Shown here: piece by piece, positions 1,759 to 57,736 of the stretch
Position numbering within the stretch: position 1 is the first letter of the stretch
Layout: each line of letters opens with the position of its first letter
From: an uncultured Candidatus Saccharibacteria bacterium
GTDB taxonomy: Bacteria > Patescibacteriota > Saccharimonadia > CAILAD01 > JADZBC01
Direction of reading: 5' to 3'
Length of the DNA: 58,848 nucleotides
Assembly: GCA_964436255.1 (NCBI GenBank)
Contig: CAYTBW010000001.1
Coordinates: 87,163-146,010, forward strand
The notes under the pieces: model-generated
What the model saw: the letters and a program-made list of their open reading frames with translations, nothing else
Databases searched by the model: none
What the model was told of the DNA's origin: nothing
Program-made: the position numbers and the translations under genes

Positions 1759-2877
1759 CTACTTCTTCCTTAGTGCTCGTAAGTAACCTTTGTGAGTTAA
1801 CTCTGCGGTTGTGCTCCAGCTAAACTTTTTAAGCTGTTCTTCGCCTCGTTCAACCAATACCTGCTGTCGGTCTTTGTCGGACAGCAAAGCCGCCATTACT
1901 TTTGCCATCTCTGCCGTATCGGTAGCATCAAAGTATTCTGCCGCTTCGCCGGCAACTTCTGGCAGACATGTAGCGTCCGAGCTCGCTACAGGTACGCCGT
2001 AACTCATAGCCTCCAGCGCTGGCAAACCGAAACCTTCGCTAAGCGATGGGAACACGTAGAGGCTCGCCTTCTTATACAGGCCTGCTAATTCCGCGTCACT
2101 CACGTAGCCAGTGAATATCACTCTGTCATCCAAGCGTACTTCGGCCACGTCCTTTTCGAGTTGTTCATGAAAGTGATCTTTGCGGCCTGCGATTACTAAT
2201 TGGTAGTCCAGCATATACTCAGTTATTAACTTGCCAAAGGCGATGATGAGGCGCTCCAAATTTTTATGCGGATAGGCGTTTCCTACGTAAAGCAAGTAAG
2301 ACTTATTAATGCCGAACTTCAGCAAATCCACACGTGGTCGCTTATATGGCATTTCTGCAGCGGCGGAAGTTACAATTATCTTCCTGGAAGAAACTTTATA
2401 CTTTTCTATCAGTCCATTCTTTACGTATTCAGTAGGAACGAACACAAGCTCAGACCGAGCTATACCCTGCTTCAGCACAAAGCGCATCACCATGTCTTTA
2501 ACATGGTAATAGAACGGCAGCATCTTTTTGCGATGTATATTCTTAAACTCTAAGAGGGTAAGGTCGTAAATCGTAATCACAAACTTACCGCGGTATAGTA
2601 TTGGGAAGTCAAAGTTGGTGAAGTGCATGAGGTCGGCCTTTTGCTTACGCAGTCGCCACCAAAAGCTCGTCTGCTCTCGGAAGGTAAACCATGGCTCCGG
2701 CGCATCGACCAGCTCCAAGTTATCGGCTTTATAATCCAGCTTATCGCAGTCTTCTGGTCGTACGAGCAAAACGTATTGGTTTTCTGTATCACGCTCCAAT
2801 ACGCCGCGCAATGTTTCTTCTACGTAGCGGCCAATGCCCGTCTGCTTTATCCATCTACCATCAATTACAATTTTCAT
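1759..2877 (-). CDS. Glycosyltransferase family 4 (GT1-fold)
   Basis: 372 aa. C-terminal PSLSEGFGLPALEAMSYGVPV...LPEV block is the GT4 retaining-transferase signature. Confidence 0.85.
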   Translation of the reverse strand: MKIVIDGRWIKQTGIGRYVEETLRGVLERDTENQYVLLVRPEDCDKLDYKADNLELVDAPEPWFTFREQTSFWWRLRKQKADLMHFTNFDFPILYRGKFVITIYDLTLLEFKNIHRKKMLPFYYHVKDMVMRFVLKQGIARSELVFVPTEYVKNGLIEKYKVSSRKIIVTSAAAEMPYKRPRVDLLKFGINKSYLLYVGNAYPHKNLERLIIAFGKLITEYMLDYQLVIAGRKDHFHEQLEKDVAEVRLDDRVIFTGYVSDAELAGLYKKASLYVFPSLSEGFGLPALEAMSYGVPVASSDATCLPEVAGEAAEYFDATDTAEMAKVMAALLSDKDRQQVLVERGEEQLKKFSWSTTAELTHKGYLRALRKK

Positions 2878-2930
2878 AAGGTTATTATAACCTATCTCCA
2901 GCTTTGCATCTCCTCTGCGCCGCTTGCATC

Positions 2931-3318
2931 CCCGACCTTGGAGTAACAGGATCAGTGAATCTGAGACCTTCAGCTCTAGCGAGGACTTAGCGTAAGCGAT
3001 CCCGCAGATAGAAGCTAGTAAGTCGAAGCATGAGATGAATCCTTGTTTGCGAACCCGTGGTCGGAAGGGCTTTAGGTTCTTTTGGCCCTTTCAAAAGAAC
3101 GAAATGGCTTAAAGGATAATGCTCTATATGTATTACTACTTTTGAATATACCAAAAGTAGTCAAAAGTATTGGCGACATGGGCTTCGAATCTAGGGGTGA
3201 CTGTTCTGACACTTCCTAGAATGTCGCTCCCACTGCGAGTTTGAGGACTCTCGTGGTTAGCTCTTTCTGGCTCGTGACTTCCAGTCTTCCTGATCCTCGA
3301 ATGTCGCGGTTAGCTACA
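2931..3318 (+). repeat. Mosaic intergenic repeat, copy A (TIR - module Y - core - module X - TIR)
   Basis: 2979-3007 is identical (29/29, direct) to 28102-28130. 3216-3258 matches 28335-28377 (41/43, direct). 3049-3103 is the exact reverse complement (55/55) of 28252-28306. 3137-3195 matches the reverse complement of 28164-28222 (about 52/59). Confidence 0.85.
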
Positions 3319-3456
3319 CAGAAGCTGCAAGTAATTCATAAGATGGGTAGTGAATTTTAGCTACTTTGCACAAACTAACGTGCTCGTGCTTGAGGCCCTT
3401 CTATAACACTAATTATCCTAGCCCTGTACGTATCGTCTACAGCCCTAGGAGGGACC

Positions 3457-4542
3457 ATGAACGTACGGAGGGTGATGACCGCAAGGTGGTCGCTTTTTTG
3501 TTTGGTGCTGGCCATAACCGTAGTGCTGCTTGCACCTATCAAGCCGGCTTCGGCCAGTGGCAGCCTCTACGTCGGCCAGGGCGGCGAGGTTGCCAACTAC
3601 CAAGCAGCCTTCAACCGCATCGGTGGCAGCGCGGCCATTGGCTACCCCGAAAGCACCGTTCACTGGTGGGGCAACGGATGCATCCAGGACTTCGGTGGCG
3701 GCAGGTACGGCGATTCAGCCCTCATGCAACCACGCTGCACCGGCCCTGTCTACGTGGTGGTCGGCAACACCTGGCGCAAGTTCATCGAACGCTTCGCTGG
3801 TGGGTCGGTTAGCTACTACGGCTACCCATACAACGACGGCCACCGCTGGGGTGCGGGCTGGGCGCAGGACTTCACCGGAGGCACCTACGGCTGGAACATC
3901 TTCGTCTACGGGGATGCCGTCGGCCGAGCCCACAACGTCCGTGGCGACATCTTGCGCTACTGGGCCAATGCACTCGGTGGTGCGCCGGGCAGCTTTGGCT
4001 TCCCTACCAGCGACGAGTACGCCTGGAGTGGCCTGCAGCGGCAAGACTTCCAGGGTGGGTCAATCGTGTGGAGTGCCAGTGGTGGTGCGCGCGTCTACCG
4101 GGCAACTCCGCCGCCGGCACCACCCGCACCCACGCGGGAACAAAAGGCTGTGGCCTGGGCCTTGGCAGAGGTGCGCTCACCGCGCCCTGGATGGAGTGAC
4201 GAATACCGGCGCATCTGGTCGGGCTACTGCGAAGGCTTCGTCGAGGCGGCCTATGGCAATCACTACGGTCGCTGGGCCACTCCGTATCGTTCGGCCATCG
4301 CCGACTACCAGGCGCAGCGAGCAGCAGGGCGCGTTCGAACATCAGGTGAGCCGCCAGCCGGCGCGCTGGTGTTTTACAACATCACCCAGTACGGCCATGT
4401 GGCTCTGTCGCTGGGTGATGGGCGCGTGGTGACCACGTGGGGCTTTGGCGAAGCCGAGCACGCGGTGCGCGTCGTGCCGCGAACCACCTTCGGCAACTAC
4501 CTTGGCTGGAGCTACGCCAACCCTGCCTGGGGCGGCCGCTAG
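3457..4542 (+). CDS. Secreted LGFP-repeat protein with C-terminal NlpC/P60- or CHAP-like cysteine peptidase/amidase domain (high-GC gene)
   Basis: AGGAGG lies 5 nt upstream of the ATG. Signal peptide MNVRRVMTARWSLFCLVLAITVVLLAPIKPASA. About 3-4 repeats of the type G.P......W..G..QDF.GG, for example ILRYWANALGGAPGSFGFPTSDEYAWSGLQRQDFQGGSIVW. PPPAPPAP linker. The C-terminal domain has Cys in SGYCEGFV and His in YGHVALSLGDG. A sampled line (3601-3660) is 63% GC versus about 48% in the neighbouring gene. Confidence 0.8.
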   Translation: MNVRRVMTARWSLFCLVLAITVVLLAPIKPASASGSLYVGQGGEVANYQAAFNRIGGSAAIGYPESTVHWWGNGCIQDFGGGRYGDSALMQPRCTGPVYVVVGNTWRKFIERFAGGSVSYYGYPYNDGHRWGAGWAQDFTGGTYGWNIFVYGDAVGRAHNVRGDILRYWANALGGAPGSFGFPTSDEYAWSGLQRQDFQGGSIVWSASGGARVYRATPPPAPPAPTREQKAVAWALAEVRSPRPGWSDEYRRIWSGYCEGFVEAAYGNHYGRWATPYRSAIADYQAQRAAGRVRTSGEPPAGALVFYNITQYGHVALSLGDGRVVTTWGFGEAEHAVRVVPRTTFGNYLGWSYANPAWGGR

Positions 4543-4565
4543 CTCGGCTCTACTTCTGTCCGTTC

Positions 4566-4595
4566 GGGGCTGGCGAGTTAATCCTCGCCAGCCCC
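4566..4595 (+). terminator. Hairpin terminator after the high-GC hydrolase gene (between convergent genes)
   Basis: Perfect 12-bp stem GGGGCTGGCGAG/CTCGCCAGCCCC with a 6-nt loop, followed by TTAATTTTAG. Confidence 0.6.
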
Positions 4596-4601
4596 TTAAT
4601 T

Positions 4602-6086
4602 TTAGTTCCTACGCAGAACGACTACCCCGTTTTGCAAGAATACCTGCTCATAGCCGAATCTCTCGACGGCACGCTGAATGAAGCTATTTAGCTCCTCGAC
4701 CGAAGCAAATGGCCACATGTCGTATCCTTGCGCAGCGACGATGTAGCCGGGTTTGTACTGACTCAAGTCAATTGGCAGGTTGTATATCTCTCGCCGGGAA
4801 CTTAGTTGTGGAAAGGCAGCCTGGGCCGCTACTGATGAGTCTCTAGGAATAAGGCTTAGTGCTTTATGTGTCGATTTATCAGCTGCCGATAGAGAGTAAA
4901 AGGCTGGCTGGATAAGCCGCTGCGGATAGCGTTCATCAATCCTTATATGCACTGCTATCGAGCCGACGACACAGATGCAGACGGCGGCAACCCCAACCTG
5001 GCTTCGCGACACCTTTAGACCATACCGGCTGGCCAATTTATACAATCGGTGCGCACCTACGATTGCAGCGACTAGCAGTATAGGCGCCTGGTCGGCCGAA
5101 TAGTGCTGGATCACTGACCAGCGCCACGGCTGGGTACTCAAGAACCTGCCAAGCCATAGGGGCGAAAGTAGTACCAAAATTTCCAGCCCAATTAACGGTA
5201 ATCCACCGAATGAAAACAGCATAAACACAATTGATTTCGTCTTCTCTAGCGGTAAGAATAGTTGTCGCACAAACTCTTTGGGGGTCTGAACGGCGGCCTT
5301 AGCAACATCAGCTGTCCCCTTACCAAACACATTATCCGAATACACGTACGGCGCGTTGCCAAACCACGGCAGCCAGTACTGAGTGACTGCTATAAAATAT
5401 GCGGCGCCAACTCCTAATAGCAGCCCACCTTTTTTGTACTGTCGGCGCATAATGATTATATAGAGGCCAAACATAATGACTAGCAAAGGCATGTTTTCTT
5501 TTACTAAGAGGAGTAATGCCAAGCAAACGAGCATTGGCTTGAAGTGGTCTTCGAGCAAAAAGTATAAAGCCCAAGCAATGATTGGCAGAGCTAAGAATAC
5601 TTCATGGAAGGCATAGGACTGGCCTGACCAAAAGCCAAAGAACATAAAGTACGGGACAAGCCAGCCAGCGGCTACTCGCTTGTCTTTAAAGTACTTAAGC
5701 GCAATCTTATATAGTGGATAGCCGCTAAGTATTAAGGCTACAATTTGGATAAGGACGAGCGAGTAGGCGTTCTGCCAAAGGAAGTAGATTGGAGCATACA
5801 GAAATAATATGAAGTGGGAGTGATCGCCAAGCAGGTTTAGCTCAGTTGGAAGTTTGAGGGGGTTTGGGCCGAAGTTGCCATGCACCATGCCCCACATGTG
5901 GCGATTAAACAATCCTAGGTCCAGCATGGGGTACATGAATTTCCGATAACTAAAGTAGCTGAAGATAAAGAAAGTCAGGAAGGCCAATCCAGATACCATG
6001 TAGAACCAGAGGTGGTCTCGGGCGTGTTGCTTGCTACGAACTAGCGAATTAGGCTTTTGCTTTGGTTTTCTTTGCTTCTTTACCAC
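4602..6086 (-). CDS. DUF2079-like polytopic membrane protein (predicted GT-C-type glycosyltransferase)
   Basis: 494 aa with many TM helices. The MLDLGLFNRHMWGMVHG...LLGDHSHFILFLYAPIYFLW region resembles DUF2079. K-rich N-terminus. The start overlaps the upstream ORF by 38 nt and is uncertain. Confidence 0.65.
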   Translation of the reverse strand: MVKKQRKPKQKPNSLVRSKQHARDHLWFYMVSGLAFLTFFIFSYFSYRKFMYPMLDLGLFNRHMWGMVHGNFGPNPLKLPTELNLLGDHSHFILFLYAPIYFLWQNAYSLVLIQIVALILSGYPLYKIALKYFKDKRVAAGWLVPYFMFFGFWSGQSYAFHEVFLALPIIAWALYFLLEDHFKPMLVCLALLLLVKENMPLLVIMFGLYIIIMRRQYKKGGLLLGVGAAYFIAVTQYWLPWFGNAPYVYSDNVFGKGTADVAKAAVQTPKEFVRQLFLPLEKTKSIVFMLFSFGGLPLIGLEILVLLSPLWLGRFLSTQPWRWSVIQHYSADQAPILLVAAIVGAHRLYKLASRYGLKVSRSQVGVAAVCICVVGSIAVHIRIDERYPQRLIQPAFYSLSAADKSTHKALSLIPRDSSVAAQAAFPQLSSRREIYNLPIDLSQYKPGYIVAAQGYDMWPFASVEELNSFIQRAVERFGYEQVFLQNGVVVLRRN

Positions 6087-7416
6087 TGCTACCCTCTTTC
6101 GGTTTATTCTTTAGCACTATCGCCATTAGCAGACCAATTGCCACCCATATGTGCATTATGTATAAGGTCGAGAATGTCTGATATTGAACGGCAGTTGCGC
6201 CAAGGTATGCAATGAGCCCCGCTGCCCACACGCCGCCATCATTGCCGAGCTCTCCACTCAAGAACTTTGGCAGCACATACTTAAGCCCCGAATAAAGAAG
6301 AGTTGCAAAGAATGCCAGCAGAGTTAGGAAGCCCACCAAGCCAGTCTCAGCCAAGAGTTCGAGTGGTTCATTGTTCACGATCACCCGGGGCGCCTGTTGA
6401 TAGCCTGGGTATGCCTCTTTTGCGTACCAGTCAAAGTTTCCGGGTCCAATGCCGAGTACTGGCTGCTCCTTAAAGGCCTGCCAAGCAAGCTTTCTGTTGC
6501 GAATACGGTCGTCCTGAGAGTCAAAATTCACTGTTTGCGTAACAAGTTGCTTGGTTTTCTTCTCGGCGCTGAATTTGTCGTCACTGGTTTTTGGCGTAGT
6601 AAGGGATGATGCAAAGGTCAAAAAATACGCGAAGGCTGCAGCGGCTACTATTAATCCGAGGTAGATTAATATCTTCCGCCAGCTTCTTGCCTTGTAAAAG
6701 CAGGTTGGGAGAAGCAAGCTGACTGCGACAAGTATGCCCGCGGCTATTGCCCCTCGCGAAACGGTAAGCACAATAGTGGCAGTAACCGCAAAGAGTGTGA
6801 CTGCGCGGGTTCTGTCTGCTATCAACTGTCTAACGCTGAGAACACTAAATGGTATCAATAAGAAGCTAGCGAAGAACAATGGTTCAAGCGCCGTAGATTG
6901 AATTCGGGGAAAACCAAAAACTGTCTTTATGTAATTGGGGGCGAGCCCGGTCACCGACTGACTTAGTCCAAAGGTGTCACCAAGGTACTGAAACATACCA
7001 AAGACAACTGCGATCCATGCGCCCCACACAAGAGCCTTTTCGTACTTCTCCAAATTCCGCTCTTCCGCAACGAATGATATCGCCAGGCTCGTAACGCACG
7101 TCAGCGTAGTTGCAATAAATACGCGTGCTGCCGCTGATAGGTCGAGAGCCAGCAGGGAGCCTAGAAAGAGTATGAATAAGAAAGCTACTAGAAACACCCT
7201 AGGTACTTTTAAAAGCTTCTTACGCTGCTTCAATATGGCGGGTACCGCAACGACAATGAGCATAACGGCAACAATCTGATTTATCCTTATAGTCACTTGG
7301 CCGCCGAGGATATCTAGCGAAGGAATGCGTTCGAAAGGCAAGCTAAACAACAGGAGGGCCATTACACTGCCGGCCAAGCCTCCGGTCCGATATCTTTTCA
7401 TTAAATCCTTCATCAA
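6049..7416 (-). CDS. O-antigen ligase/polymerase family (Wzy_C-like) membrane protein
   Basis: 455 aa with at least 10 hydrophobic helices. The TVSRGAIAAGILVAV loop region is typical of the Wzy_C family. Lys-rich C-terminal tail. Confidence 0.7.
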   Translation of the reverse strand: MMKDLMKRYRTGGLAGSVMALLLFSLPFERIPSLDILGGQVTIRINQIVAVMLIVVAVPAILKQRKKLLKVPRVFLVAFLFILFLGSLLALDLSAAARVFIATTLTCVTSLAISFVAEERNLEKYEKALVWGAWIAVVFGMFQYLGDTFGLSQSVTGLAPNYIKTVFGFPRIQSTALEPLFFASFLLIPFSVLSVRQLIADRTRAVTLFAVTATIVLTVSRGAIAAGILVAVSLLLPTCFYKARSWRKILIYLGLIVAAAAFAYFLTFASSLTTPKTSDDKFSAEKKTKQLVTQTVNFDSQDDRIRNRKLAWQAFKEQPVLGIGPGNFDWYAKEAYPGYQQAPRVIVNNEPLELLAETGLVGFLTLLAFFATLLYSGLKYVLPKFLSGELGNDGGVWAAGLIAYLGATAVQYQTFSTLYIMHIWVAIGLLMAIVLKNKPKEGSSGKEAKKTKAKA

Positions 7417-28038: not shown

Positions 28039-28431
28039 TGTAGCTCTGCCTTACGCGACATTCGAAGATCAGAAAGACTGGAGCTGCCGACGCCAGAACG
28101 AGCGAGGACTTAGCGTAAGCGATCCCGCAGCGAGTATCTAGTGACAAAGCGAACAGTCACTTCTAGATCTGAGCCCCATGTCGCAGATACTTTTGGCTAC
28201 TTTTGGTATCTTCAAAAGTAGCAATCCATAAAGTGCGTCCCTTTTAAACTATTCGTTCTTTTGAAAGGGCCAAAAGAACCTAAAGCCCTTCCGACCACGG
28301 GTTCGCATCTAGGTGCGTTCGTTCACTCATGAATCTAGAATGTCGTGCCCACTGCGAGTTTGAGGACTCTCGTGGTTCACTTGTTCTGGCGCGTGGGCTC
28401 CTCACTACCTGATGCTCCAAGGTCGGGTTAG
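28039..28431 (+). repeat. Mosaic intergenic repeat, copy B
   Basis: See copy A. Own imperfect terminal inverted repeats: 28045-28072 resembles the reverse complement of 28408-28437. The right arm 28397-28431 is 35/35 identical (inverted) to 53252-53286. Confidence 0.85.
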
Positions 28432-38033: not shown

Positions 38034-38725
38034 TACTTAGCGGCCTCAGCTGGTGCGTACTCTACCATATATCCATCGAGATCTATGCCTTTCGAATCGA
38101 GATACTCAAGAGCAGCTTTTTTGTAAGACTTCAAGAAAGCAGGATTGAGCGCTTGATCGTTTGTTAATAGTAGTGCAATGGTAATTTTTTCCGTCTTGCC
38201 TTCTGGCGTCGGCTCATCGAGCAATTGGTAGTTTATGTAGTATTGTGAAGTCGTTACGGGTAGGAACTTAATTGCTGGGTCGCTACCTTTCACCTTCACA
38301 TCTTCTGTAGTCGCTCCCGGGTCATAATTATAGGAGAACTCATATTTATACTCGTCGATCGAAGATCCATCTGTGGCGACAATGTTTACTAATTTAAAAC
38401 TATAGTTACTCCCCGAATTCATATTATTCAGCTGAAGGTACAGGTCCTTCCCCTCGACTTTACTCCCTGCAACTATACTACTCGCGACCTTAAGCTGAGT
38501 TGCCCTATCAAACCCAGCAAGCTCTTTGTTGAAAGAAATTACTACTGTGCGGGTAAGCGTAGTGATCGTCGACCCGCTCTCTGGGCTAGCTGAGGTTACT
38601 CTAAACACAGATGAAGAAAGCGCAGCCACACTGATTATGAATAAACCTAGGACAATAATAAGCGGCAGGATATAGCGCTTATATTGCTGGTAGATTTTTC
38701 CTCCCATAATTATTACTTCGCCCAT
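38030..38725 (-). CDS. Membrane-anchored Ig-like (Big_5/SbsA-like) protein, last gene of the T4SS-like operon
   Basis: N-terminal TM (ILPLIIVLGLFIISVAAL), then P.SGS.I....R.VVISFNKEL ... YSFKLVNIVATDGSSI, resembling bacterial Ig-like domains. The start is 38725 or 38707. Confidence 0.5.
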   Translation of the reverse strand: MGEVIIMGGKIYQQYKRYILPLIIVLGLFIISVAALSSSVFRVTSASPESGSTITTLTRTVVISFNKELAGFDRATQLKVASSIVAGSKVEGKDLYLQLNNMNSGSNYSFKLVNIVATDGSSIDEYKYEFSYNYDPGATTEDVKVKGSDPAIKFLPVTTSQYYINYQLLDEPTPEGKTEKITIALLLTNDQALNPAFLKSYKKAALEYLDSKGIDLDGYMVEYAPAEAAKY

Positions 38726-39945
38726 GGCTGGTTAAGTATATTTTGCGCAAACCCAAGTCTAATTGGCTTGTTCCCCGGAATGTCAGCCGGCCTCTCAAAC
38801 TTTGTTAGGAATACATACGTGCATTCCTCGAGTGAAGAGCTCGCCAGAATTACATCAAGCGTATTAGCCTTATATGCATCATTGAGTTCAAACCATAGAA
38901 ACTCTAACTGGACACCCAGGTCACTTGCTGGCTTGCCCGCCGCTGTAGCATAGTTTTCAAGATTCGTCCTACGCCCAAATGTCCACTGCGCTAAGCCATA
39001 ACCCTTATCCTTACGTGTTACTCCCTTCTCTTCTATACCGGGATTAAAGCCTGACTCAGCTTGCAGGTTGCCCATAATCCCAGCGATTTGAATTGGCGTC
39101 AGCCCCTTGCCCTTTAAGAAGTTGAATACCTTCTCGGCATTATCGTTACCACTCAAGTCCGTACCACTCGATATTGCACTTGAGCAGGATGGCCCAGAGG
39201 CTGTTGCGGTGGAAGTTGAAACACCTGCGAGGCCATCAGCCACGGTCTTTGCAAAGCCAGCCTTCCCAGTTGCTGTGAACGGGTGTACCCCTAGCCCATC
39301 ATCAGATATAAAATTGGGGTTCTTACTAACCACAGAAGCCCAATCAACCATAGTAAAGCCCTCCACTGTGGCTGATTTCCCAAGCGCTTCGTTTATCGGA
39401 GCCGTGTTGATATCAGCCGCATCACGCTTGGCGTTATTCACTCCAATATTCACCCAATATATCTTTGCTCCTGGAGCACCTGCCTTAATCCCTGCAACCG
39501 CCTTGGTTACATTAGCGCTGGACACACCACTATTTGTACCAAGTGCGATTACCGCAACCTTGGCGTCAGCCATCCGCGCCTTGTCTGCTGCAATGACCGA
39601 CACGCCATCTAACTCACCACTCCCTTCACTAAGTCTGCGGCTAGACTTTCCATTAATCTGGATGTCGGTAAAGCCCTTTTGTTTAAAAGCAGCTGTCAGT
39701 TCCGTGTTTGTACCCTCGGTAATCGAGTCCCCTACCATATATATTTTTCCGGTTTGGATTTGTGAATAGTCGGATCCTTGCTCTGCAACACAACTACCTA
39801 GATCCGTTGGGTCGTAGAAGGTTCTTAGTTCTATGTCTTTTCGCTCACCAGCAGTGAAAGCAAGTGCTGGGGGATAGGCACCTAATAGCGCGATAAAGGC
39901 GTAAATAGAAAGAGCTAATATGCTCCTAAATTTAATACATTTCAT
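38713..39945 (-). CDS. Secreted SGNH/GDSL hydrolase fused to a phage-tail-type lysozyme domain
   Basis: Signal peptide. GDSL block I in IYMVGDSITEG. C-terminal IAGIMGNLQAESGFNP...GYGLAQWTFGRR matches the phage tail lysozyme (Phage_lysozyme2-type) motif. Confidence 0.75.
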   Translation of the reverse strand: MKCIKFRSILALSIYAFIALLGAYPPALAFTAGERKDIELRTFYDPTDLGSCVAEQGSDYSQIQTGKIYMVGDSITEGTNTELTAAFKQKGFTDIQINGKSSRRLSEGSGELDGVSVIAADKARMADAKVAVIALGTNSGVSSANVTKAVAGIKAGAPGAKIYWVNIGVNNAKRDAADINTAPINEALGKSATVEGFTMVDWASVVSKNPNFISDDGLGVHPFTATGKAGFAKTVADGLAGVSTSTATASGPSCSSAISSGTDLSGNDNAEKVFNFLKGKGLTPIQIAGIMGNLQAESGFNPGIEEKGVTRKDKGYGLAQWTFGRRTNLENYATAAGKPASDLGVQLEFLWFELNDAYKANTLDVILASSSLEECTYVFLTKFERPADIPGNKPIRLGFAQNILNQPWAK

Positions 39946-40544
39946 AATTGCCTCTCTAGGTAATCATACACCTTCTTGGGCATCAGTTTGTCTACAGCCT
40001 GGTCGTCTAAAAATTCAGGGGCTGGCCCGGCCACAAGCCGCCATTTGCCACTAGACTTAGTAAATACAGCATAAAGGTCGGGTAGGTCAGACTGGTCGAT
40101 ATCGAACTGAACTACCTCCGCAACCGCCCATTTCCCGCCTTCCAAATAGGTTGGTTCTTTTACTTTATATTCAATCCCCGCTTGGTTTACAGATTTAGGT
40201 AGAGCCGCTGTAAGCGCGTCCGAAAGCTTTACCCTGAGCGGGACTTTTACCGAACTAGTCTCACTCGCATTAATGACTTTGTAGTATGTTTCGAAGCCAG
40301 CCTTCTCCACCTTGAGTTGGTAATCTTTAGCACGAAGCGCTAAGGATAGCTTATTACTGCTAACTGAGTACATCTTGCCGTTTAGGGTTAATGTCGTATT
40401 ATTCTCGGACATCAGGAAGGTGATTCTTTTTGACGTTGCTTGATATATGCCAAACCCTAGGAATACCAGGATAAAACTAATAACCAAGATAGAAATGAGT
40501 CTATTTTTTCGTAAGTAGGCTAAGATATCCTTCACCTCGGACAC
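39942..40544 (-). CDS. Membrane-anchored PEGA-domain protein
   Basis: TM (LISILVISFILVFLGFGIY), then TLNGKMYSV...YQLKVEKAGFETYYKVI (PEGA-like). The start is uncertain: GTG at 40544 or 40535, overlapping the upstream TGA. The track start 40613 lies inside the upstream gene. Confidence 0.5.
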   Translation of the reverse strand: MSEVKDILAYLRKNRLISILVISFILVFLGFGIYQATSKRITFLMSENNTTLTLNGKMYSVSSNKLSLALRAKDYQLKVEKAGFETYYKVINASETSSVKVPLRVKLSDALTAALPKSVNQAGIEYKVKEPTYLEGGKWAVAEVVQFDIDQSDLPDLYAVFTKSSGKWRLVAGPAPEFLDDQAVDKLMPKKVYDYLERQL

Positions 40545-43500
40545 CCTAAGCTTTCCGGCTGTACATACTCGTCGGATATTCTCACATGGAAATGGGTATC
40601 GTGCCCAGCCCAATATTTCATGACCCCCGGCTTACCTACAGATTTGGCATACTCGTTCACTGCCGTCTGTACCGCAGTGTCGTTGTGTAGAATCATCTTA
40701 ATAATGCCCGTGTCAATAAACCACTTGCCTAGTTGAATTGACTTGTTTCTATCGCCACTCACGTTTGCAGCAGAGCGGTCGGTAACGGTAATATCCACAT
40801 CTACACCTTTTTTGTGACTAACGTGGCCACTTCCTGCATTGAGGTCTCCAATACGCAGCGTACTACCTGGGTAAGTCTTCGCCCATTGTTGGGCCACCGT
40901 ATAGATTGTTCCAACTAATTCCTTGCTACCACAGCGGTCATTGCCAGAGAATACGTACAAACCAGCCGGATCACTTTCGGGCATGGTGTAATACCCCGTC
41001 CCATTGATGGCACCAGCCAGGTTTGGGGGATATGTAATTCCCTCTACAGTTGGACCGGATGCTGCTCCAGCTGAAGTCCCACCAGATGATTTGGCATATA
41101 TGCTGTCGTCTGGCTCGTCACTGCTTAGTCTGGCCCAAGCCCCGTACAAGTTGCGATGACCTTTATATATGGCATACTTCTTTGCCAGTGCCTTTTCTGT
41201 AGTTGGGCTCAACGCAGCGAGACGGATATTTGCTTTGGGGAGGTTGTATTTTGCAGATGATATGGAGTAGGCGCTGGCAAGGGTCCTGCCAACATTACTT
41301 TGCCGCATCATCTGGCATGCTTTGTCCTGCGATTCATCAAGAGTTTCCATGTCTGGGTAATATGTTTCCATACACTTATCCCAAGCTGCAAATGATGCAG
41401 CTACAGACTTTATAGTTTCGTCGTTCGCATAGGCAGGGTCCGCAACCTTCTTCTTTAAAGCCTCTATATAGCGAGCATTCTGAATTGCATCTTCAGTCTG
41501 TGGCACCCCTGCAGTGTCGATCTTCCAATACTCTCTGTCATCATCTCCCGCTGCAATAGCCTTGTTGCTCTCGCCGTAGCCAACATATGCAATAGCAGAG
41601 TTAATCTCCGCAAAAGCGCGGATTGGGTTGAGCATATTTACTGCATACCGAGTAGTCTTTTCTGCTACCTGCGTGGGTGTTGCTGTGGACTCAGCGGCCA
41701 TACGACTTGCTATCGACCTCGGATTGTCGGTATTAAGTAGTCTGAACGCTATACCATTAGTTCTGTCTCGATTACGTTTTAGGCTTTCTACATCTAAGCT
41801 CGCCTTGTTTCCTTCTGCGGCAGTTTCGTATGATCCGCCAAACAGACTAAAGGTGTAATCATAGGTTGAGGATTTTGCCCCAACCGTCATACGATTGAAA
41901 TTATCAGGACCGTCCTCCACACCGCTATTGCTAGCGTTGGATGTAACCTTGATAGTTCTAACTATTATGTCTTCAAGCGTCACTTTATCGGCTGATGAAT
42001 AGTACTGGGAGTTGTTCTTTTGAATATCTCGTTTTAGGTATGTAAGCGCATCATCGATGTCTTTCGAAATATCCTCCTTGGAAGGCCCTCCACCTCCGAA
42101 TAGACCGCTGAAGAAATCGCTAAAACTGCCGAAACCCCCATCATCTAGATTGTCTTGCTTACTACAGAGGCTTGTGAGCGAGTTCTTAATCCTGCCCTGA
42201 TCCTCTAGTTCCTCGAAATAGTTCTTAGTAAGCCCAAGCACTCTAGTAGGGATCGCCTCAGGGTCTATCTGTACCCCGGCAGACGAACCATTGATCTCTT
42301 GATTGTAGGCGCGTGAGGTAGAGAAATTATTGATTTTATACATATCGCCGTTTAGCTCGTCAGTAGATATCTCCCCGGCTACACCAGTATCGGCTAAAGT
42401 AAGAGCTTGGAATCCTGCTCGAGCAGAAGACTTAGCTCGATTTTGTTTATATTTCTTTACAGCATCTTTATCCTCGTTTAGTTTTTTGTAGAATACACAT
42501 GCAGCCTTAGTGTATTGGATCAGCCTTTTTTCGTATTTGGCTGAGTCGGTGTCAAGTGATTTTGGAATCTCCTCTACTTTATAGTCAACATCAATTTTCT
42601 CTGGCTGAGTACCGCATGAAAGATCATTTATAACTTTCTTTATACTTCTGTCTACCTTCGAGCCGGTCGGCCGGAAGTCTTTTATGCATTCTGTACTATT
42701 GCCATACGGACTATCCGGATTACTCCAGAGTCTCGTAAGAGATTTTTTATGAAGAGCCTCCTTAACCTCTTTCTTGTCCTTACCTTTCAATACCTCAGAA
42801 TCTTTCTTTTCAGCATAATTAAGGTTTACTTGCTTCTGCTGATTTATCTTACGCGCTTCTGGACTACGCATCATGGCTTCCATTACCGGATATTGCTCTA
42901 ATATGCAGGAATAAACACCAGGCGCCTTCATGTCTGCTGTTCTACCCTCTTTATCGACGACTTTATCTATCACACTGCGTCTTTGCCCGTCGTAAGACAC
43001 GACGGGCTTCGTAATTACTTTGTACTCGCAGTAACTTGATTTGAATTTGTTTCGAGATTTTTCATAATCTATTTTCGAGATAGTCTCTTCCAAAGAGCCG
43101 GGCTCCGGTTTTTGTCCTGGAGGGGCGGCAAGTGCGGCGCCTGGCTTGTAGTCTACTTCATACGGCATAGCACCAGTGATATAAGCGAGTGACTCACGAC
43201 TACTGCCTTCGCCAGCAGCTAGTCCGGCAGCGCTAAGCGCAAACCTGCGAAAACTCGAATCAGTAATCACCTTTTTAACGGCATCCCAAGGGTGGGTGGC
43301 GACATAAAAAAATACAAGAATAGGGATAGAGAGGAGAAGCAGGATTGCAAAACAGCCCAGTCCGCAGCCAACGCTAACCTTCTTTACGTCTACTCTTTTT
43401 ACAACCTCTTCAACCGCATCGCCAGCAGCTTTACCAACTGTAGCCCCGACACCTGTTGAGTCTAGGGCAGCTTGTGTACCTACATTAGCTGCCTTACCGG

Positions 43501-43819
43501 CCGCCGCCCTGGCTTGTTTTTCGGCCGCTCCTTGATCCTCTGGCCTTACAGTGCCGGGGGCATGATCCAAGGCCTTATTGGTGGCTTTTTTTGTGCCCGC
43601 CGAAACAGGGTCCGCAGATTTTGGCCCTTTTGAGCCGGGGGTGTGTCCTCCACTTCCAGCTTGACCTACGGGGGACTTTGGGAGATCTGATGCTTCGCGT
43701 AAGTTGCCGCTTCGTCCGGGTTTTACTGGTGCATCGTCGCGCACACGATTAGACATGTTGCTACTGGAGTTCGTCACACTCCCTGGCGTGTCATCATTTA
43801 ACTTGGCAGGACTTGCCAT
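40532..43819 (-). CDS. 1095-aa single-pass membrane protein with C-terminal LAS-type (MepA/M74- or M15-like) zinc peptidoglycan peptidase
   Basis: About 140 aa of Gly/Ala/Lys/Pro-rich N-terminal tail, one TM (CGLGCFAILLLLSIPILVFFYV), and about 750 aa of unassigned ectodomain. The C-terminus has GSGHVSHKKGVDVDI (H..D) and GHDTHFHVRI (HxH), ending LGCPR. Confidence 0.75.
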   Translation of the reverse strand: MASPAKLNDDTPGSVTNSSSNMSNRVRDDAPVKPGRSGNLREASDLPKSPVGQAGSGGHTPGSKGPKSADPVSAGTKKATNKALDHAPGTVRPEDQGAAEKQARAAAGKAANVGTQAALDSTGVGATVGKAAGDAVEEVVKRVDVKKVSVGCGLGCFAILLLLSIPILVFFYVATHPWDAVKKVITDSSFRRFALSAAGLAAGEGSSRESLAYITGAMPYEVDYKPGAALAAPPGQKPEPGSLEETISKIDYEKSRNKFKSSYCEYKVITKPVVSYDGQRRSVIDKVVDKEGRTADMKAPGVYSCILEQYPVMEAMMRSPEARKINQQKQVNLNYAEKKDSEVLKGKDKKEVKEALHKKSLTRLWSNPDSPYGNSTECIKDFRPTGSKVDRSIKKVINDLSCGTQPEKIDVDYKVEEIPKSLDTDSAKYEKRLIQYTKAACVFYKKLNEDKDAVKKYKQNRAKSSARAGFQALTLADTGVAGEISTDELNGDMYKINNFSTSRAYNQEINGSSAGVQIDPEAIPTRVLGLTKNYFEELEDQGRIKNSLTSLCSKQDNLDDGGFGSFSDFFSGLFGGGGPSKEDISKDIDDALTYLKRDIQKNNSQYYSSADKVTLEDIIVRTIKVTSNASNSGVEDGPDNFNRMTVGAKSSTYDYTFSLFGGSYETAAEGNKASLDVESLKRNRDRTNGIAFRLLNTDNPRSIASRMAAESTATPTQVAEKTTRYAVNMLNPIRAFAEINSAIAYVGYGESNKAIAAGDDDREYWKIDTAGVPQTEDAIQNARYIEALKKKVADPAYANDETIKSVAASFAAWDKCMETYYPDMETLDESQDKACQMMRQSNVGRTLASAYSISSAKYNLPKANIRLAALSPTTEKALAKKYAIYKGHRNLYGAWARLSSDEPDDSIYAKSSGGTSAGAASGPTVEGITYPPNLAGAINGTGYYTMPESDPAGLYVFSGNDRCGSKELVGTIYTVAQQWAKTYPGSTLRIGDLNAGSGHVSHKKGVDVDITVTDRSAANVSGDRNKSIQLGKWFIDTGIIKMILHNDTAVQTAVNEYAKSVGKPGVMKYWAGHDTHFHVRISDEYVQPESLGCPR

Positions 43820-43863
43820 GTGGGTTCGTTGCTCCTATTTGGTATTAGTGTAATTATACCGTA

Positions 43864-45756
43864 CTACGCTTGAGTTGTGTTGGCAGGTATTACAGGTGTA
43901 GTCTGTGCCTCTGGTGGCAACGCGGCTACATTAGCATCTACGGCGTCTTGCTGGGCCCGCTGCTGGTCGAGCATATGTTGAGGGTTCGTACTGATCAGCT
44001 GGGTTTCCATTGGTGAGGCCAATATGCGCAATATAATATGGCTTAGTCCGGCAAAGAATAGCCCCTCACCTACTGGAAACTGGCTAAGTCTGCTGCTTTC
44101 TTCACTTGTTAGCTTAAAGGTGTCGGCTACGATGTCGACTGCAGCAGGGTTCTGCTTGAGCAGAAGCTGTAAGGACGAGTTATTTACGATTGCACGGCCT
44201 AGTCGTGTGCTAAGGAAGTCTTCTACGTCCTGGGAGATTGTAGTGAGCCCCAGGAAGTATTTACGGGCTCTTTTTGCGATCGAGAACAAGAACATGGCAG
44301 AGTCCTGGTACTGCATGAGCTGCCACGCTTCGTCTACTACCAGTATTCTCTTACGGCGATCTGTTTTTACTCGATTCCATATGTAGTTCAGTACAATGTA
44401 CATTCCAATAGGCCGCAGTTCGTCTTCTAGGTCACGAATGTTAAATACAACGAACCGATTATTAAGCTGCACGTTTGATTGTTGTGAAAAGATTCCCGAG
44501 AATGTTCCTTCAGTAAAACGGCGCAAGCGAGCAGCGAGTCCCTGGCCAGTGCCCGGCATACTAAGGAGCTCATTGTATAGGTCGGCCATTACCGGCGGCT
44601 GCGCACGGTGGGTCAGCGGGTCATTTGTGATCCCCTTTTTGGCATAGGTGTTGATCAGCGCTATGTCCATGTCGGCTTCTTCTGTAGGGCTCATGTCTCC
44701 AGCCATGAGCCGCAGCAGGCCGTGAAGCATTATGATGTTTGCTCTAAGTGCGTTATCAGCTTCCTCTGGATCTACAGTCTGAGGCAGGTCGAACGGATTA
44801 ACTCGAGTATTGCTTGCGAGTGAAAGGTGTAGGTAACTGCCCCCCACTGCATCACAAAGAGTCTTATACTCGTTCTCTGGGTCAATTATTACGACCTCCG
44901 TACCCATCATGAGTGAGCGCAAGCATTCTAGCTTAACTGCGAAACTCTTTCCTGCACCAGATTTTGCGAATACTGTCATGTTGGCGTTTTCTAAACTGAA
45001 TCGATCAAATATGACCAGACCGTTGTTGTGACGGTTGATGCCATACATAATCCCGTCTTCTTGGCTGAGCTCGGCCGTGGTGAACGGGAAGGTAGAGCTT
45101 AGTGCTCCAGTGTTCATATTTCGATAGACATTTAACTGGTCAAGACCCATGGGGATGGTGGAGTTAAAACCTTGTTCCATTTGGATAGTGGCCGGTTTTG
45201 TGTAGATGAGGCTTTGGCCCAACATGCTTTCAATCTTCTTGCCCACCAGGTTGAGTTCATCTAGATCCTTACCATAAATGGTAATGTATAGGCCAAGTCG
45301 GAAAAAGCGATCAGACCCAACTTGCAGGCTGTCACGTAATTCCTCCGCATCCTGAATAGCTGCTTCGAGTCCTGGGTCTCGAACTTTGCCCTTTTCTTGA
45401 TTGATCGTGTAGTTCGCCTCTAACTGACCTACCTTCTTCTTTAGATTGTCGAGCACAATCTTACTTTCAACCGGAATGATGTTTAAGCTGATGTCTATAA
45501 TCTCATCAATGTTAATAAGTGGTGAGAGCCAGCCGGTATAAAGTGTACGGGGGTAGCCGAACACAAACAGCGTGCGGGCAAGACGCTTCCCTATTTTTAT
45601 GTGGTCGTTCACGATTTCGATGGATGAAGGGGCAATTATGTCTCGAAGACTCACTACACCTTCCCGGTATATCTTTTCGGCCTCAGCTTGCATAGCTGCC
45701 CGTCGGTCGATTTCTGCTTGGACCTTAGGGTCGATCCGAGGTTGCTTAACGGCCAT
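43864..45756 (-). CDS. virB4: VirB4/TrbE-type type IV secretion ATPase
   Basis: 630 aa. Walker A FAKSGAGKSF, Walker B ILVVDEAW, and the N-terminal VirB4-type domain (LFVFGYPRTLYTGWLSPL). Confidence 0.9.
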   Translation of the reverse strand: MAVKQPRIDPKVQAEIDRRAAMQAEAEKIYREGVVSLRDIIAPSSIEIVNDHIKIGKRLARTLFVFGYPRTLYTGWLSPLINIDEIIDISLNIIPVESKIVLDNLKKKVGQLEANYTINQEKGKVRDPGLEAAIQDAEELRDSLQVGSDRFFRLGLYITIYGKDLDELNLVGKKIESMLGQSLIYTKPATIQMEQGFNSTIPMGLDQLNVYRNMNTGALSSTFPFTTAELSQEDGIMYGINRHNNGLVIFDRFSLENANMTVFAKSGAGKSFAVKLECLRSLMMGTEVVIIDPENEYKTLCDAVGGSYLHLSLASNTRVNPFDLPQTVDPEEADNALRANIIMLHGLLRLMAGDMSPTEEADMDIALINTYAKKGITNDPLTHRAQPPVMADLYNELLSMPGTGQGLAARLRRFTEGTFSGIFSQQSNVQLNNRFVVFNIRDLEDELRPIGMYIVLNYIWNRVKTDRRKRILVVDEAWQLMQYQDSAMFLFSIAKRARKYFLGLTTISQDVEDFLSTRLGRAIVNNSSLQLLLKQNPAAVDIVADTFKLTSEESSRLSQFPVGEGLFFAGLSHIILRILASPMETQLISTNPQHMLDQQRAQQDAVDANVAALPPEAQTTPVIPANTTQA

Positions 45757-46805: not shown

Positions 46806-46847
46806 AGATACAATTACACCCGGTGTATTATTTGCTGGATAGGTGGA

Positions 46848-54608: not shown

Positions 54609-54700
<92 letters not shown>

Positions 54701-57628: not shown

Positions 57629-57736
57629 GGGGCTTGGGCCCCTTTCATTTCGGGGCGTCTTTTGGTCCGCCATTGAATACAACGGCATACATAATAGCAT
57701 AAGCGCTTACTTTTGTCAATAGATTGAGGGTATGGG

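Follow-up and report, generated by a model that had tools for sequence, protein, structure and literature searches.

Among described proteins with LGFP repeats, the closest point of comparison is MytA of Corynebacterium glutamicum, in which five repeats follow an esterase domain (PDB 6SWZ, 6SX4) and bind peptidoglycan-arabinogalactan (PMC11299179). LGFP repeats are joined to a peptidoglycan hydrolase in the lysin A of actinophages (Rhodococcus phage Sleepyhead, Gordonia phage Keelan). The NlpC/P60 DL-endopeptidases CwlO/LytE of Bacillus subtilis, MepS (Spr) of Escherichia coli, RipA/RipB of Mycobacterium tuberculosis and Cg1735 of C. glutamicum combine a papain-like catalytic domain with a wall-binding part, which in the known enzymes is built of LysM, SH3 or coiled-coil segments. 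Cultivated Saccharibacteria live on Actinomycetota, and one of them lyses mycolata (PMC11880426, PMC12592800). The literature on Saccharibacteria with LGFP or NlpC yielded no description of a family uniting LGFP with NlpC/P60. To our knowledge, the attachment of Saccharibacteria to Actinomycetota, and their feeding on them, have so far not been tied to any cell-wall hydrolase.

Here we analysed a window of 58,848 nucleotides, the whole stretch presented above, from an uncultured Candidatus Saccharibacteria bacterium. It encodes a protein that, judged from its sequence and a structural model, is composed of three LGFP repeats and a divergent NlpC/P60 cysteine peptidase and is predicted to be secreted. 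The gene is probably a conserved, syntenic wall hydrolase of the Saccharimonadia, made of actinobacterial-type modules that were anciently fused and carrying a high GC content that has been maintained. This conserved pairing of a secreted, actinobacterial-type anchor with a peptidase provides a concrete, clonable candidate for a role either in dealing with the host wall or in division of the epibiont itself. The features of the locus are as follows.

3321 to 3456, plus strand: promoter-proximal region and 5' UTR, backbone-like (GC 44.9%)
3447 to 3452, plus strand: Shine-Dalgarno AGGAGG, read from the sequence, 4 nt before the ATG
3457 to 4542, plus strand: hydrolase CDS of 361 aa, coinciding with the GC island (ORF list; GC 64.9%)
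3457 to 3555, plus strand: signal peptide, residues 1-33, by inspection, with predicted cleavage between ASA and SG
3589 to 4095, plus strand: three LGFP-type repeats, residues ~45-213, predicted cell-wall-binding module (Pfam PF08310)
4096 to 4137, plus strand: Pro-rich interdomain linker (…ATPPPAPPAPT…), low pLDDT at 218-221
4138 to 4539, plus strand: divergent NlpC/P60 (clan CA, C40-like) domain, residues ~228-361 (Foldseek, family profiles)
4228 to 4230, plus strand: codon of Cys258, predicted nucleophile, invariant, at the start of helix 258-265
4396 to 4398, plus strand: codon of His314, predicted catalytic His, invariant, at the start of strand 314-318
4566 to 4595, plus strand: intrinsic terminator hairpin with a 12-bp stem (10 G-C pairs), followed by TTAATTTTAG

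Protein architecture and actinobacterial relatives

The initial annotation had proposed a signal peptide, LGFP repeats, a C-terminal Cys/His peptidase domain and an actinobacterial affinity, and all four elements are upheld by the evidence that follows. The N-terminus, MNVRRVMTARWSLFCLVLAITVVLLAPIKPASA followed by SG after the predicted cleavage site, reads by inspection as a Sec/SPase I-type signal peptide, with a basic n-region, a hydrophobic core and an AxA motif that are kept across the family alignment; in the AF2 model it forms a helix (4-25) and then a low-confidence segment (29-34). The repeats reach 42.6 bits with Pfam LGFP (PF08310) against a cut-off of 22, and all 18 full-length family members match the same profile. 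With phmmer, the LGFP part matches C. glutamicum PS1/MytA (E 5.4e-11), and with Foldseek it aligns to 6swz (E 3.5e-9, TMt 0.65, rmsd 2.7 Å over 175 columns), the AF2 model (pLDDT 83.9) presenting three tandem units of helix plus beta-sheet that correspond to the LGFP fold.

The module has in common with that of MytA its fold (a helix and a three- to four-stranded sheet), the G-[FY]-P motif (FGFP at 180-183 in the window protein) and, by analogy, the presumed role of anchoring a secreted enzyme to the wall. It differs in the number of repeats (three versus five), in position (N-terminal to a peptidase versus C-terminal to an esterase) and in occurring in a Saccharibacterium rather than in C. 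glutamicum. Additionally, C75 and C94 of the first repeat are invariant in the family alignment; a Cys pair of this kind has been reported as absent from the LGFP of MytA and present in that of the GH70 enzymes described alongside it (PMC11299179). The linker behind the repeats is variable or insertion-bearing across the family.

Taken alone, the window protein gave no Pfam NlpC/P60 (PF00877) or CHAP match at E<=1, and a search of a word-indexed protein database with only the C-terminal domain returned four uninformative matches; the assignment of this domain comes from fold, family and CwlO matches. Foldseek on the AF2 model recovers the papain-like alpha+beta fold characteristic of NlpC/P60, with matches to 2hbw, 4xcm, MepS (8xud, 2k1g), RipA/B/C, Cg1735, CwlO and Acd24020 (E 3.5e-3 to ~0.1, TMt 0.4-0.66, probability ~1 for most); the Thermus thermophilus NlpC/P60 protein is among these fold matches. 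Within the family, NLPC_P60 is matched by 12 of the 18 members (best E 4.5e-7) and CHAP by six, and the domain of an Actinomycetes MAG sequence (L032), 49% identical to that of the window protein, attains 26.1 bits (cut-off 23). Furthermore, a profile of the C-terminal domain retrieves CwlO from the PDB (E 5.3e-7) with Cys and His aligned, C258 falling on the CwlO segment DCSSFV and H314 on NGHVGIY; without exception, the 18 full-length and 26 domain sequences retain C258, E259 and H314.

The window protein thereby resembles CwlO/LytE, MepS, RipA/RipB and Cg1735 in papain-like fold, in the placement of Cys and His, and in a modular secreted design that pairs a wall-binding with a catalytic part, although its wall-binding partner is LGFP. 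Compared with enzymes of the CwlO/RipA type, however, its catalytic domain has diverged strongly, and the position aligned with the third residue of the triad, expected ~10-12 residues after the His, is a non-canonical Ser/Thr, where His, Asn, Gln, Glu or Asp is canonical. The subfamily also has motifs of its own, namely W-S-G-Y-C-E-G-F-V-E and a C-terminal Y-L-G-W-x-Y-A...W-x-G-R.

Outside Saccharibacteria, the nearest relatives of both modules are almost all Actinomycetota among the 185,579 species genomes scanned; the GTDB scan used exact peptide patterns only, and the taxonomic picture is thus incomplete. Actinobacterial matches reach 45-49% identity at best, each over a single module and within another architecture, and neither the GTDB scan nor the protein search contained an actinobacterial sequence more than 49% identical. 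For the catalytic module, Actinomycetes proteins of the same NlpC/P60 subfamily share 36-49% identity over residues ~222-361 together with the C-terminal motif, but carry other N-terminal modules or none: B_lectin precedes NlpC/P60 in L032 and SH3_3 in a Curtobacterium protein (L035), and further carriers occur in Actinoplanes, Amycolatopsis, Micromonospora and Dermatophilaceae. Unlike the window gene, the genes of these proteins match the composition of their own genomes, without a GC island. For the LGFP module, the same three-repeat arrangement is found by tblastn at 46-47% identity over ~35-210 in L028 (M4 thermolysin plus LGFP) and L029 (cutinase, He_PIG and LGFP), whose LGFP modules also contain the HxWxxGCxQD motif used as a scan pattern; both, however, are Actinomycetota enzymes of roughly 1000 aa with unrelated catalytic domains. 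Actinophage lysin A differs further, with ~35% identity over 27% of the protein and no catalytic-domain match. A phage endolysin as the direct source of the gene is not plausible, the matches to actinophage lysin A being weak and confined to the LGFP module.

Synteny and the predicted target wall

The full-length gene occurs in ~20 Saccharibacteria species at 36-84% identity, mostly adjoining the same GT4 glycosyltransferase gene, and every relative examined has it in syntenic position. In the loci with gene calls that were examined, GT4 adjoins the hydrolase gene, and GH5-like, DUF2079 and Wzy_C or VanW genes lie nearby. The flanking genes of the window are 76-93% identical at the protein level to those of MAGs labelled Candidatus Saccharibacteria, which supports a saccharibacterial origin of the window.

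From this architecture, the product would be a Sec-exported, wall-anchored peptidoglycan peptidase in which the three LGFP repeats would hold the enzyme on a cell-wall polymer and the NlpC/P60 domain, through C258 and H314, would cut the peptide stems of peptidoglycan. It would most likely do so as a DL-endopeptidase comparable to CwlO, LytE or RipA.

Because the linkage to envelope-glycan genes is conserved, we lean slightly towards the epibiont's own wall over that of the host as the predicted target, and give this assignment about an even chance. A gene of equally ancient origin could nonetheless serve the putative task of binding the actinobacterial host wall where the epibiont attaches, and of cutting it there for feeding or lysis, which we hold to be a serious possibility of somewhat less than even weight. 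In its favour, nearly every LGFP module that the survey detected beyond the Saccharibacteria was actinobacterial, the LGFP domains of MytA bind peptidoglycan-arabinogalactan (PMC11299179), and LGFP is a wall-binding module in the lysin A of Rhodococcus and Gordonia phages; the hosts of cultivated Saccharibacteria are Actinomycetota, and one cultivated Saccharibacterium lyses mycolata (PMC11880426, PMC12592800); and the catalytic domain has its relatives among actinobacterial enzymes, some of them from wastewater Dermatophilaceae and Gordonia. The predicted secretion of the protein points the same way, but the export signal is a plain Sec signal, and nothing ties the gene to the T4SS cluster, where separate lysozyme and endopeptidase-like genes are found. 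Moreover, the conserved neighbours are the organism's own envelope-glycan genes (GT4, Wzy_C, DUF2079, VanW), and autolysis is the typical role of NlpC/P60 enzymes that carry wall-binding repeats. The most specific form of the host-directed reading, a conserved Saccharimonadia tool whose host-type repeats would dock the putative peptidase on actinobacterial polymers and open the peptidoglycan at the point of contact, is put forward only tentatively.

The GC island and its surroundings

The hydrolase CDS (3457-4542) has 64.9% GC versus 48.3% in the rest of the window, and in 1-kb bins the island is the sole stretch above 60%, all other bins lying at 42-59%. Its GC1/2/3 values are 0.62/0.57/0.75, and relative to the 47 other ORFs it stands out in overall GC (z = 4.5), GC2 (z = 3.5) and GC3 (z = 3.3). 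The composition climbs over ~3457-3556 and drops over ~4543-4600, in agreement with the shift within about 100 nt that had been described initially, so that the jump is genuine and far beyond the range of the window. The cassette bounds proposed at the same time, 3366-4600, are not those of the gene, which extends from 3457 to 4542; position 3366 is the first base of a 148-aa ORF that is out of frame with the hydrolase gene. The borders of the island are the start and stop codons of the CDS, and the 5' side has 40-52% GC.

The expression signals that had been attributed to the cassette are also present, with the AGGAGG at 3447-3452 and the GC-rich terminator at 4566-4595. The final ~190 bp upstream of the ATG align to the 177-bp spacer between the GT4 and LGFP genes of two relatives (L001, L011) with conserved blocks, and the GGAGG core of the Shine-Dalgarno sequence is kept in L001, L010 and L011; a consensus scan of the plus strand upstream of the gene revealed no sigma-70-like promoter. 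The terminator hairpin, situated between the hydrolase gene and a convergent DUF2079 gene that ends at 4602, has a minimum free energy of -30.2 kcal/mol (z = -5.6), and none of 200 shuffled sequences folds equally well. The repeat copy that had been placed beside the gene is an element at 2921-3320, just upstream; it belongs to an intergenic repeat family, occupies one flank of the gene only, and is missing from the equivalent spacer of L001/L011. An Rfam search of the upstream spacer and the repeat gave no match, either at the gathering threshold or at E<=1. No signature of mobility (integrase, tRNA, target duplication) was found bordering the hydrolase locus, and the nearest tRNAs lie at 101-175 and 54609-54700.

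The composition jump itself, and nothing else, would speak for an assembly chimera or a contaminating actinobacterial read-through, an alternative that had been raised for this locus. The gene has the same neighbours in ERZ27309396, ERZ28655916 and ERZ27309394, in two SRP133034 MAGs and, in a relative further removed, on a 644-kb contig; the junctions coincide with the start codon and the stop codon, and the sequence on the 5' side is conserved. Since the same gene and flanks recur in independent assemblies, a chimera is very unlikely, and its probability appears negligible. The gene has a dN/dS of ~0.1 relative to L001, which indicates purifying selection.

Age of the gene and persistence of its composition

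The hydrolase gene diverges in step with its flanking genes at three depths. Amino-acid identity to L001, L010 and L012, respectively, is 84.5, 80.9 and 55.2% for the LGFP gene, 85.5, 79.2 and 52.5% for the GH5-like gene, 92.7, 87.6 and 53.5% for GT4, and 78.9, 76.1 and 51.4% for DUF2079; synonymous divergence has reached 0.66, 0.68 and 0.87 of saturation in the gene, compared with 0.60-0.93 in the flanks. When sequences from outside the group are included, every saccharibacterial LGFP module falls into a single clade (98% bootstrap). The neighbour-joining tree of the C-terminal domain (117 columns) is poorly resolved, above all at its deep nodes; in it, the Actinomycetes MAG sequences L032 and L033 nest among Saccharibacteria, and L018 and L025 swap partners between the two trees. 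This nesting and discordance suggest that the history of the family includes domain exchange, possibly with more than one transfer.

In all 18 full-length Saccharibacteria loci (L010-L027), the hydrolase gene exceeds its flanks in GC by 4.9-17.6 points, and four lineages separated by dS of 0.9-1.3 or more keep a GC3 of 0.73-0.76, although the size of the GC3 excess differs between lineages. Corrected for amino-acid content, backbone codon usage predicts a GC3 of 0.526 versus the 0.750 observed (z = 8.8); amino-acid composition as the sole source of the island is rejected on this basis. The silent-site excess lies mainly in C (C3 0.48 versus 0.30; G3 0.27 versus 0.23): NNY codons are shifted to C in 20 of 21 lineages, whereas the shift of NNR codons to G is at the level of the backbone (0.63 versus 0.55). 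Actinobacterial homologues, in contrast, are high in both classes, with NNR to G mostly at 0.74-0.97 (range 0.62-0.97). A neutral remnant of donor composition is accordingly disfavoured, with NNR to G at backbone level and NNY to C above it. In its four-fold codons, however, the window gene resembles the actinobacterial L032, so that only the NNR class (n = 27) clearly separates a maintained bias from a donor remnant. Altogether, roughly half of the GC excess is attributable to amino-acid composition and half to a maintained preference for C-ending codons. The former half reflects a conserved composition in which Gly, Ala, Arg, Pro and Trp abound and Lys is scarce; the latter may result from selection on codon usage, possibly linked to expression. 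The window lacks ribosomal-protein and EF-Tu genes, and its Hsp20 gene is unremarkable (NNY-C 0.61).

These data bear directly on the initial proposal of a recent, not-yet-ameliorated cassette taken from a high-GC actinobacterial host. The sharp island, codon preferences (GGC, ACC, GCC, CCG, CTG, CGC) like those of actinobacterial genes, the actinobacterial relatives of both modules and the report of Actinomycetota-to-Saccharimonadia transfers at >99% identity in wastewater (bioRxiv 10.64898/2026.09.16.751625) would all be compatible with such a capture. Yet the gene is syntenic in ~20 species and co-diverges with its flanks in relatives down to 55% identity; its GC3 is unchanged with synonymous sites at 66-87% of saturation; the actinobacterial sequences nearest to it do not exceed 49% identity, share one module and have other architectures; the island ends at the start and stop codons, with a conserved, backbone-like upstream region; and the silent-site bias is C-specific, NNR to G lying at the backbone value and below most actinobacterial homologues. 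Of the hallmarks of an unameliorated island, atypical composition is thus present, but patchy presence, a close donor homologue and donor-like composition across non-coding flanks and all synonymous classes are not seen. The claim of an unameliorated insert does not survive this comparison, and we consider a recent capture highly improbable. Of the two features of the homologues that had been named as contrary to it, the first was observed, the best homologues being Patescibacteria with the same GC pattern, and the second, a lack of actinobacterial affinity, was not.

Repeated re-acquisition of the gene, or gene conversion at its locus with host homologues as donors, offers another way in which the high GC could have been kept, albeit an improbable one. 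Two Actinomycetes sequences among the Saccharibacteria in the C-domain tree, the discordance of L018 and L025 and the lineage-to-lineage variation in GC3 excess are consistent with it, as is the natural competence of cultivated Saccharibacteria described in a preprint (PMC10187176, preprint of PMC10633639). Against it stand the lack of any actinobacterial sequence more than 49% identical in the GTDB scan and the protein search, the monophyly of the saccharibacterial LGFP module (98%), a protein divergence equal to that of the flanks at every depth, an excess that is C-specific rather than one of general G+C, and the occurrence of the same conserved GC3 island in an unrelated orphan gene, orf57083.

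The reading we prefer remains that of an ancient fusion with maintained composition. We infer that both modules most probably came from Actinomycetota long ago, that they were joined in an ancestor within the Saccharimonadia, and that the gene has since been inherited vertically at a fixed locus beside envelope-glycan genes, near the replication origin. A methodological caution follows: in these genomes, a single gene that stands out as a sharp GC island may be old and actively kept so, and composition by itself therefore gives no evidence of a recent transfer from host to parasite. That gene-specific GC3 has outlasted saturated synonymous divergence also poses a small question of its own in genome evolution.

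The window contains, in orf57083, a second GC3-island gene, a conserved orphan unrelated to the hydrolase and with no detected actinobacterial relatives. Conserved gene-specific GC3 islands are observed in the hydrolase gene, in orf57083 and in genes of L087; as a less likely interpretation, such islands might mark a distinct codon-usage class of surface or host-interaction genes in these reduced genomes.

Gene limits, domains and occurrence of the LGFP hydrolase

Within the stretch 3366-4600, tentatively read in the initial annotation as a host-derived actinobacterial lysin cassette, lies one real gene (the LGFP gene, 361 aa); position 3366 belongs to an out-of-frame ORF, and the actual coding sequence begins at 3457. 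The gene and its neighbours are arranged as follows:

707-1750, GH5-like gene
1759-2877, minus strand, GT4 gene, followed by a spacer and the LGFP gene
3447-3452, plus strand, Shine-Dalgarno AGGAGG, 4 nt before the LGFP gene ATG
3457-4542, plus strand, LGFP gene
4566-4595, terminator, 12-bp stem with 10 G-C pairs (folding z = -5.6)
4602-6086, minus strand, DUF2079 gene
6049-7416, minus strand, Wzy_C gene

The AGGAGG, signal peptide and terminator attributed to the gene are confirmed, the Sec signal peptide (N-terminus MNVRRVMTARWSLFCLVLAITVVLLAPIKPASA, then SG) being recognised by inspection of its n-, h- and c-regions. The proposed combination of LGFP repeats with a Cys/His domain of NlpC/P60 type is likewise borne out. 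The protein matches Pfam LGFP at 42.6 bits (cut-off 22), and sequence comparison with solved structures finds just one relative, the C. glutamicum PS1/MytA LGFP domain (E 5.4e-11). An AlphaFold model built from the 18-sequence family alignment (mean pLDDT 83.9) places, in order, a signal helix, three helix-plus-sheet repeats (approximately residues 45-213), a Pro-rich linker and an alpha+beta C-terminal domain. In Foldseek searches against the PDB, the N-terminal half retrieved the MytA LGFP domain (E 3.5e-9, TMt 0.65) and the C-terminal half a lengthy and coherent set of peptidoglycan peptidases of the NlpC/P60 and CHAP types (MepS/Spr, T. thermophilus NlpC/P60, Anabaena 2hbw, RipA/B/C, Cg1735, CwlO and Acd24020). 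The window protein alone gave no match to the Pfam NlpC/P60 model; 12 of the 18 family members match it (best E 4.5e-7), and 6 match CHAP. Furthermore, a profile of the C-terminal domain finds the B. subtilis DL-endopeptidase CwlO (E 5.3e-7), aligning the invariant C258 ('yCelFv') and H314 of the family on 'DCSSFV' and 'NGHVGIY', respectively, with a non-canonical Ser/Thr at the position where the third triad residue would be expected. In repeat 1 the Cys pair C75/C94 is invariant; a conserved Cys pair with a predicted disulfide is also on record for GH70 enzymes, in their LGFP domains (PMC11299179). A dN/dS of ~0.1 against the nearest relatives indicates purifying selection.

Among 5.8 billion proteins, full-length relatives form a small metagenomic family (37-84% identity, one member labelled Candidatus Saccharibacteria), and a scan of 185,579 species, one genome each, recovered the gene at full length (36-84% identity) from ~20 genomes that carry a Saccharibacteria or Saccharimonadia label. 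Outside these genomes the two halves match separately and almost exclusively in Actinomycetota, which upholds the suggested actinobacterial affinity. The LGFP module is 46-47% identical to that of two Actinomycetota MAGs, while counterparts of the catalytic domain (36-49% identity) occur in Actinoplanes, Amycolatopsis, Micromonospora, Allokutzneria, Dermatophilaceae, Flexivirga, Curtobacterium, Gordonia and others. In these actinobacterial proteins each module keeps different company: M4 thermolysin or cutinase for LGFP, and B_lectin, SH3_3 or no partner for the catalytic domain. An exhaustive profile search across 1.84 billion cluster representatives yielded 7,997 matches at E<=1e-3, of which 246 reached E<=1e-30, with the whole profile covered in only ~10 of the best 150. 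Within the data examined, the fusion is specific to Saccharibacteria. Phage matches were weak and confined to the LGFP module, in lysin A of Rhodococcus and Gordonia phages. One Saccharibacteria locus (L041, 2417-3331) encodes a protein in which SH3_3 is paired with an NlpC/P60 domain of this catalytic subfamily, the architecture of a Curtobacterium homologue (L035); its gene is also a GC island (62% vs 49%; GC3 0.75 vs 0.56).

Neighbourhood and age of the gene

Recent capture of a host gene, as initially proposed, is not supported by synteny or by divergence. The same gene order was found again in independent assemblies of close relatives, and GT4 adjoins the LGFP gene also in relatives at 45% and 42% identity, in one of which (a 644-kb contig) the locus lies ~4 kb from dnaA; the window, too, covers the origin region (VanW, MnmE, Jag, YidC, dnaA, dnaN, recF). 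Against Saccharibacteria loci of increasing depth, the LGFP gene diverges as its flanks do; synonymous divergence is scaled, gene by gene, to the saturation that the codon usage of that gene predicts.

Divergence from relatives L001 / L010 / L012
LGFP protein identity: 84.5 / 80.9 / 55.2%
GH5-like protein identity: 85.5 / 79.2 / 52.5%
GT4 protein identity: 92.7 / 87.6 / 53.5%
DUF2079 protein identity: 78.9 / 76.1 / 51.4%
Scaled synonymous divergence, LGFP gene: 0.66 / 0.68 / 0.87
Scaled synonymous divergence, flanks: 0.60-0.93

Since its synonymous divergence falls within the flank range, the gene and its neighbours are of equal age in these lineages. In the LGFP-module tree (163 columns), all Saccharibacteria copies stand apart from outside sequences (98% bootstrap), the window grouping with L001/L010 (100%) and then L012 (96%). 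The catalytic-domain tree (117 columns) has poorly resolved deep nodes and two Saccharibacteria groups, in one of which genes from two Actinomycetes MAG loci (L032 6374-7600 and L033 5614-6417) nest with 85% support. Two Saccharibacteria loci, L018 and L025, are placed differently in the two trees. These topologies suggest domain exchange in the history of the family, possibly more than one inter-phylum transfer, and perhaps transfer in both directions between Actinomycetes and Saccharibacteria; synteny, co-divergence and the domain trees gave no sign of a recent event in the window lineage. Other genes are reported to have passed from Actinomycetota to Saccharimonadia (bioRxiv 10.64898/2026.09.16.751625).

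In a distant relative (L004, 10001-13070) VanW directly follows the LGFP gene, unlike in the window, where ~24 kb of envelope-glycan genes (4602-28036: DUF2079, Wzy_C, several GT4/GT1, an acyltransferase, ManC and an Ig/B_lectin protein) lie between them. This cluster is bracketed by two copies of an intergenic repeat (element ~380 bp):

2921-3320, repeat copy A, in the GT4-LGFP spacer beside the LGFP gene
28054-28431, repeat copy B, upstream of VanW
53252-53312, repeat fragment of 61 nt

Copy B matches copy A in both orientations (77% reverse, 69% forward), with 84-93% over the central part in inverted orientation. Related copies occupy two intergenic sites in L010, with a fragment in L001/L011, and the repeat is absent from the equivalent 177-bp GT4-LGFP spacer of L001/L011; it is not part of the gene unit. 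It has no Rfam match and could be a MITE-like or modular palindromic element.

A GC island with a probably maintained codon bias

The described jump in composition is real. The LGFP CDS has 64.9% GC against 48.3% in the remainder of the window (48.7% overall) and is the sole region above 60% in 1-kb bins; against the 47 other ORFs its z-scores are 4.5 (GC), 3.5 (GC2) and 3.3 (GC3). In 50-nt bins, GC rises from 40-52% before the start codon to 60-66% within 100 nt, remains at 62-70% as far as the stop codon and drops to 42% immediately past the terminator. The gene exceeds its flanks by 4.9-17.6 points in all 18 full-length Saccharibacteria loci compared (L010-L027), whereas actinobacterial homologues match their own genomes.

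The excess at codon positions 1, 2 and 3 (+0.08, +0.17, +0.23) means that about half derives from the first two positions and half from silent sites. The former half is attributable to a conserved amino-acid composition (Gly 14.7%, Ala 12.2%, Arg 8.0%, Trp 4.7%, Lys 0.8%), GC2 being 0.55-0.57 in each lineage checked. Amino-acid content does not account for the latter, as GC3 is 0.750 against 0.526 predicted by backbone codon usage (z = 8.8). Within this departure, C3 is 0.48 (0.30 expected) and G3 0.27 (0.23 expected), and the share of C-ending codons in the pyrimidine class is 0.82 vs 0.54 in the backbone and raised in 20 of 21 Saccharibacteria lineages, whereas G-ending codons in the purine class (0.63 vs 0.55) are inconsistent among lineages. 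The silent-site excess thus consists almost entirely of C-ending codons, while actinobacterial homologues are high in both classes (0.64-0.90 and 0.62-0.97).

Moreover, GC3 stays at 0.73-0.76 in the window, L001/L011, L010 and L012, among which synonymous sites have largely turned over; on a simple two-state amelioration argument, only about a quarter of a donor signal would have survived the window-L012 split by itself. The island is exactly coextensive with the CDS, and the sequence upstream of it resembles the backbone and can be aligned with that of relatives. Together, steady GC3 despite turnover, C-specificity and CDS-bound edges argue for a maintained codon-specific bias and against the unameliorated insert first envisaged. 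We infer that codon usage is under selection, perhaps in connection with expression; the window contains no ribosomal-protein or EF-Tu genes, and among its 48 genes the LGFP gene has the second-highest share of C-ending pyrimidine codons. Third is a bestrophin-like membrane protein (54755-55546, minus strand; 0.77), with moderately raised GC3 (0.64).

A further GC3 outlier is present in the window:

57083-57700, minus strand, orf57083, predicted 205-aa membrane protein, GC 63%, GC3 0.84

It lacks Pfam domains, and the search for relatives gave just three homologues (71-94% identity) and no further match. Its orthologue on another contig (L087, 3431-3976) is 77% identical, adjoins the same Pirin gene and has GC3 0.86; two more ORFs there (1027-1560 and 1947-2504) reach 0.75 and 0.97 in a ~50% GC backbone. 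Conserved gene-specific GC3 islands thus recur in this lineage with no actinobacterial connection detected, which weakens composition as evidence of host origin. Such maintained islands are a real feature.

Modular wall hydrolases are commonplace, and LGFP and NlpC/P60 are known families. The novelty lies in two actinobacterial-type modules being fused in a gene that is conserved and syntenic in Saccharimonadia, and in the long-term upkeep of its GC-rich, C-ending codon usage; a literature search found no paper on the fusion family or on LGFP in Saccharibacteria.

Predicted function and target wall

Most likely, the protein would leave the cell by the Sec route, attach to a wall polymer through its LGFP repeats and cut peptidoglycan stem peptides with its Cys/His NlpC/P60 domain, presumably as a DL-endopeptidase by analogy with the best solved relatives. 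Enzymes such as CwlO, LytE and RipA usually act as autolysins, and this usual role, the conserved linkage to the cell's envelope-glycan genes and the plain Sec signal give the epibiont's own wall about an even chance of being the target. Action on the host (actinobacterial) wall is a slightly less likely alternative, in keeping with the actinobacterial outside relatives of the catalytic domain and with LGFP being elsewhere an actinobacterial wall-binding module, which in MytA binds peptidoglycan-arabinogalactan (PMC11299179). It also fits the way of life of cultivated Saccharibacteria, whose hosts are Actinomycetota and one species of which lyses mycolata (PMC11880426, PMC12592800). Although recent capture is not supported, the gene is a good experimental candidate.

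A T4SS-type cluster near the origin (38713-49933) includes:

38713-39945, GDSL lipase + phage-tail-lysozyme protein
40532-43819, 1095-aa protein with an M74-like endopeptidase segment
43864-45756, VirB4/TraG-like ATPase
46848-47681, PrgI-family protein

Its hydrolases are alternative candidates for host-wall-directed enzymes. The ORF at 47681-49933 (minus strand) encodes a 750-aa protein with no Pfam match, in which tandem 57-nt repeats (47730-47873) specify Gly/Pro-rich collagen-like sequence.
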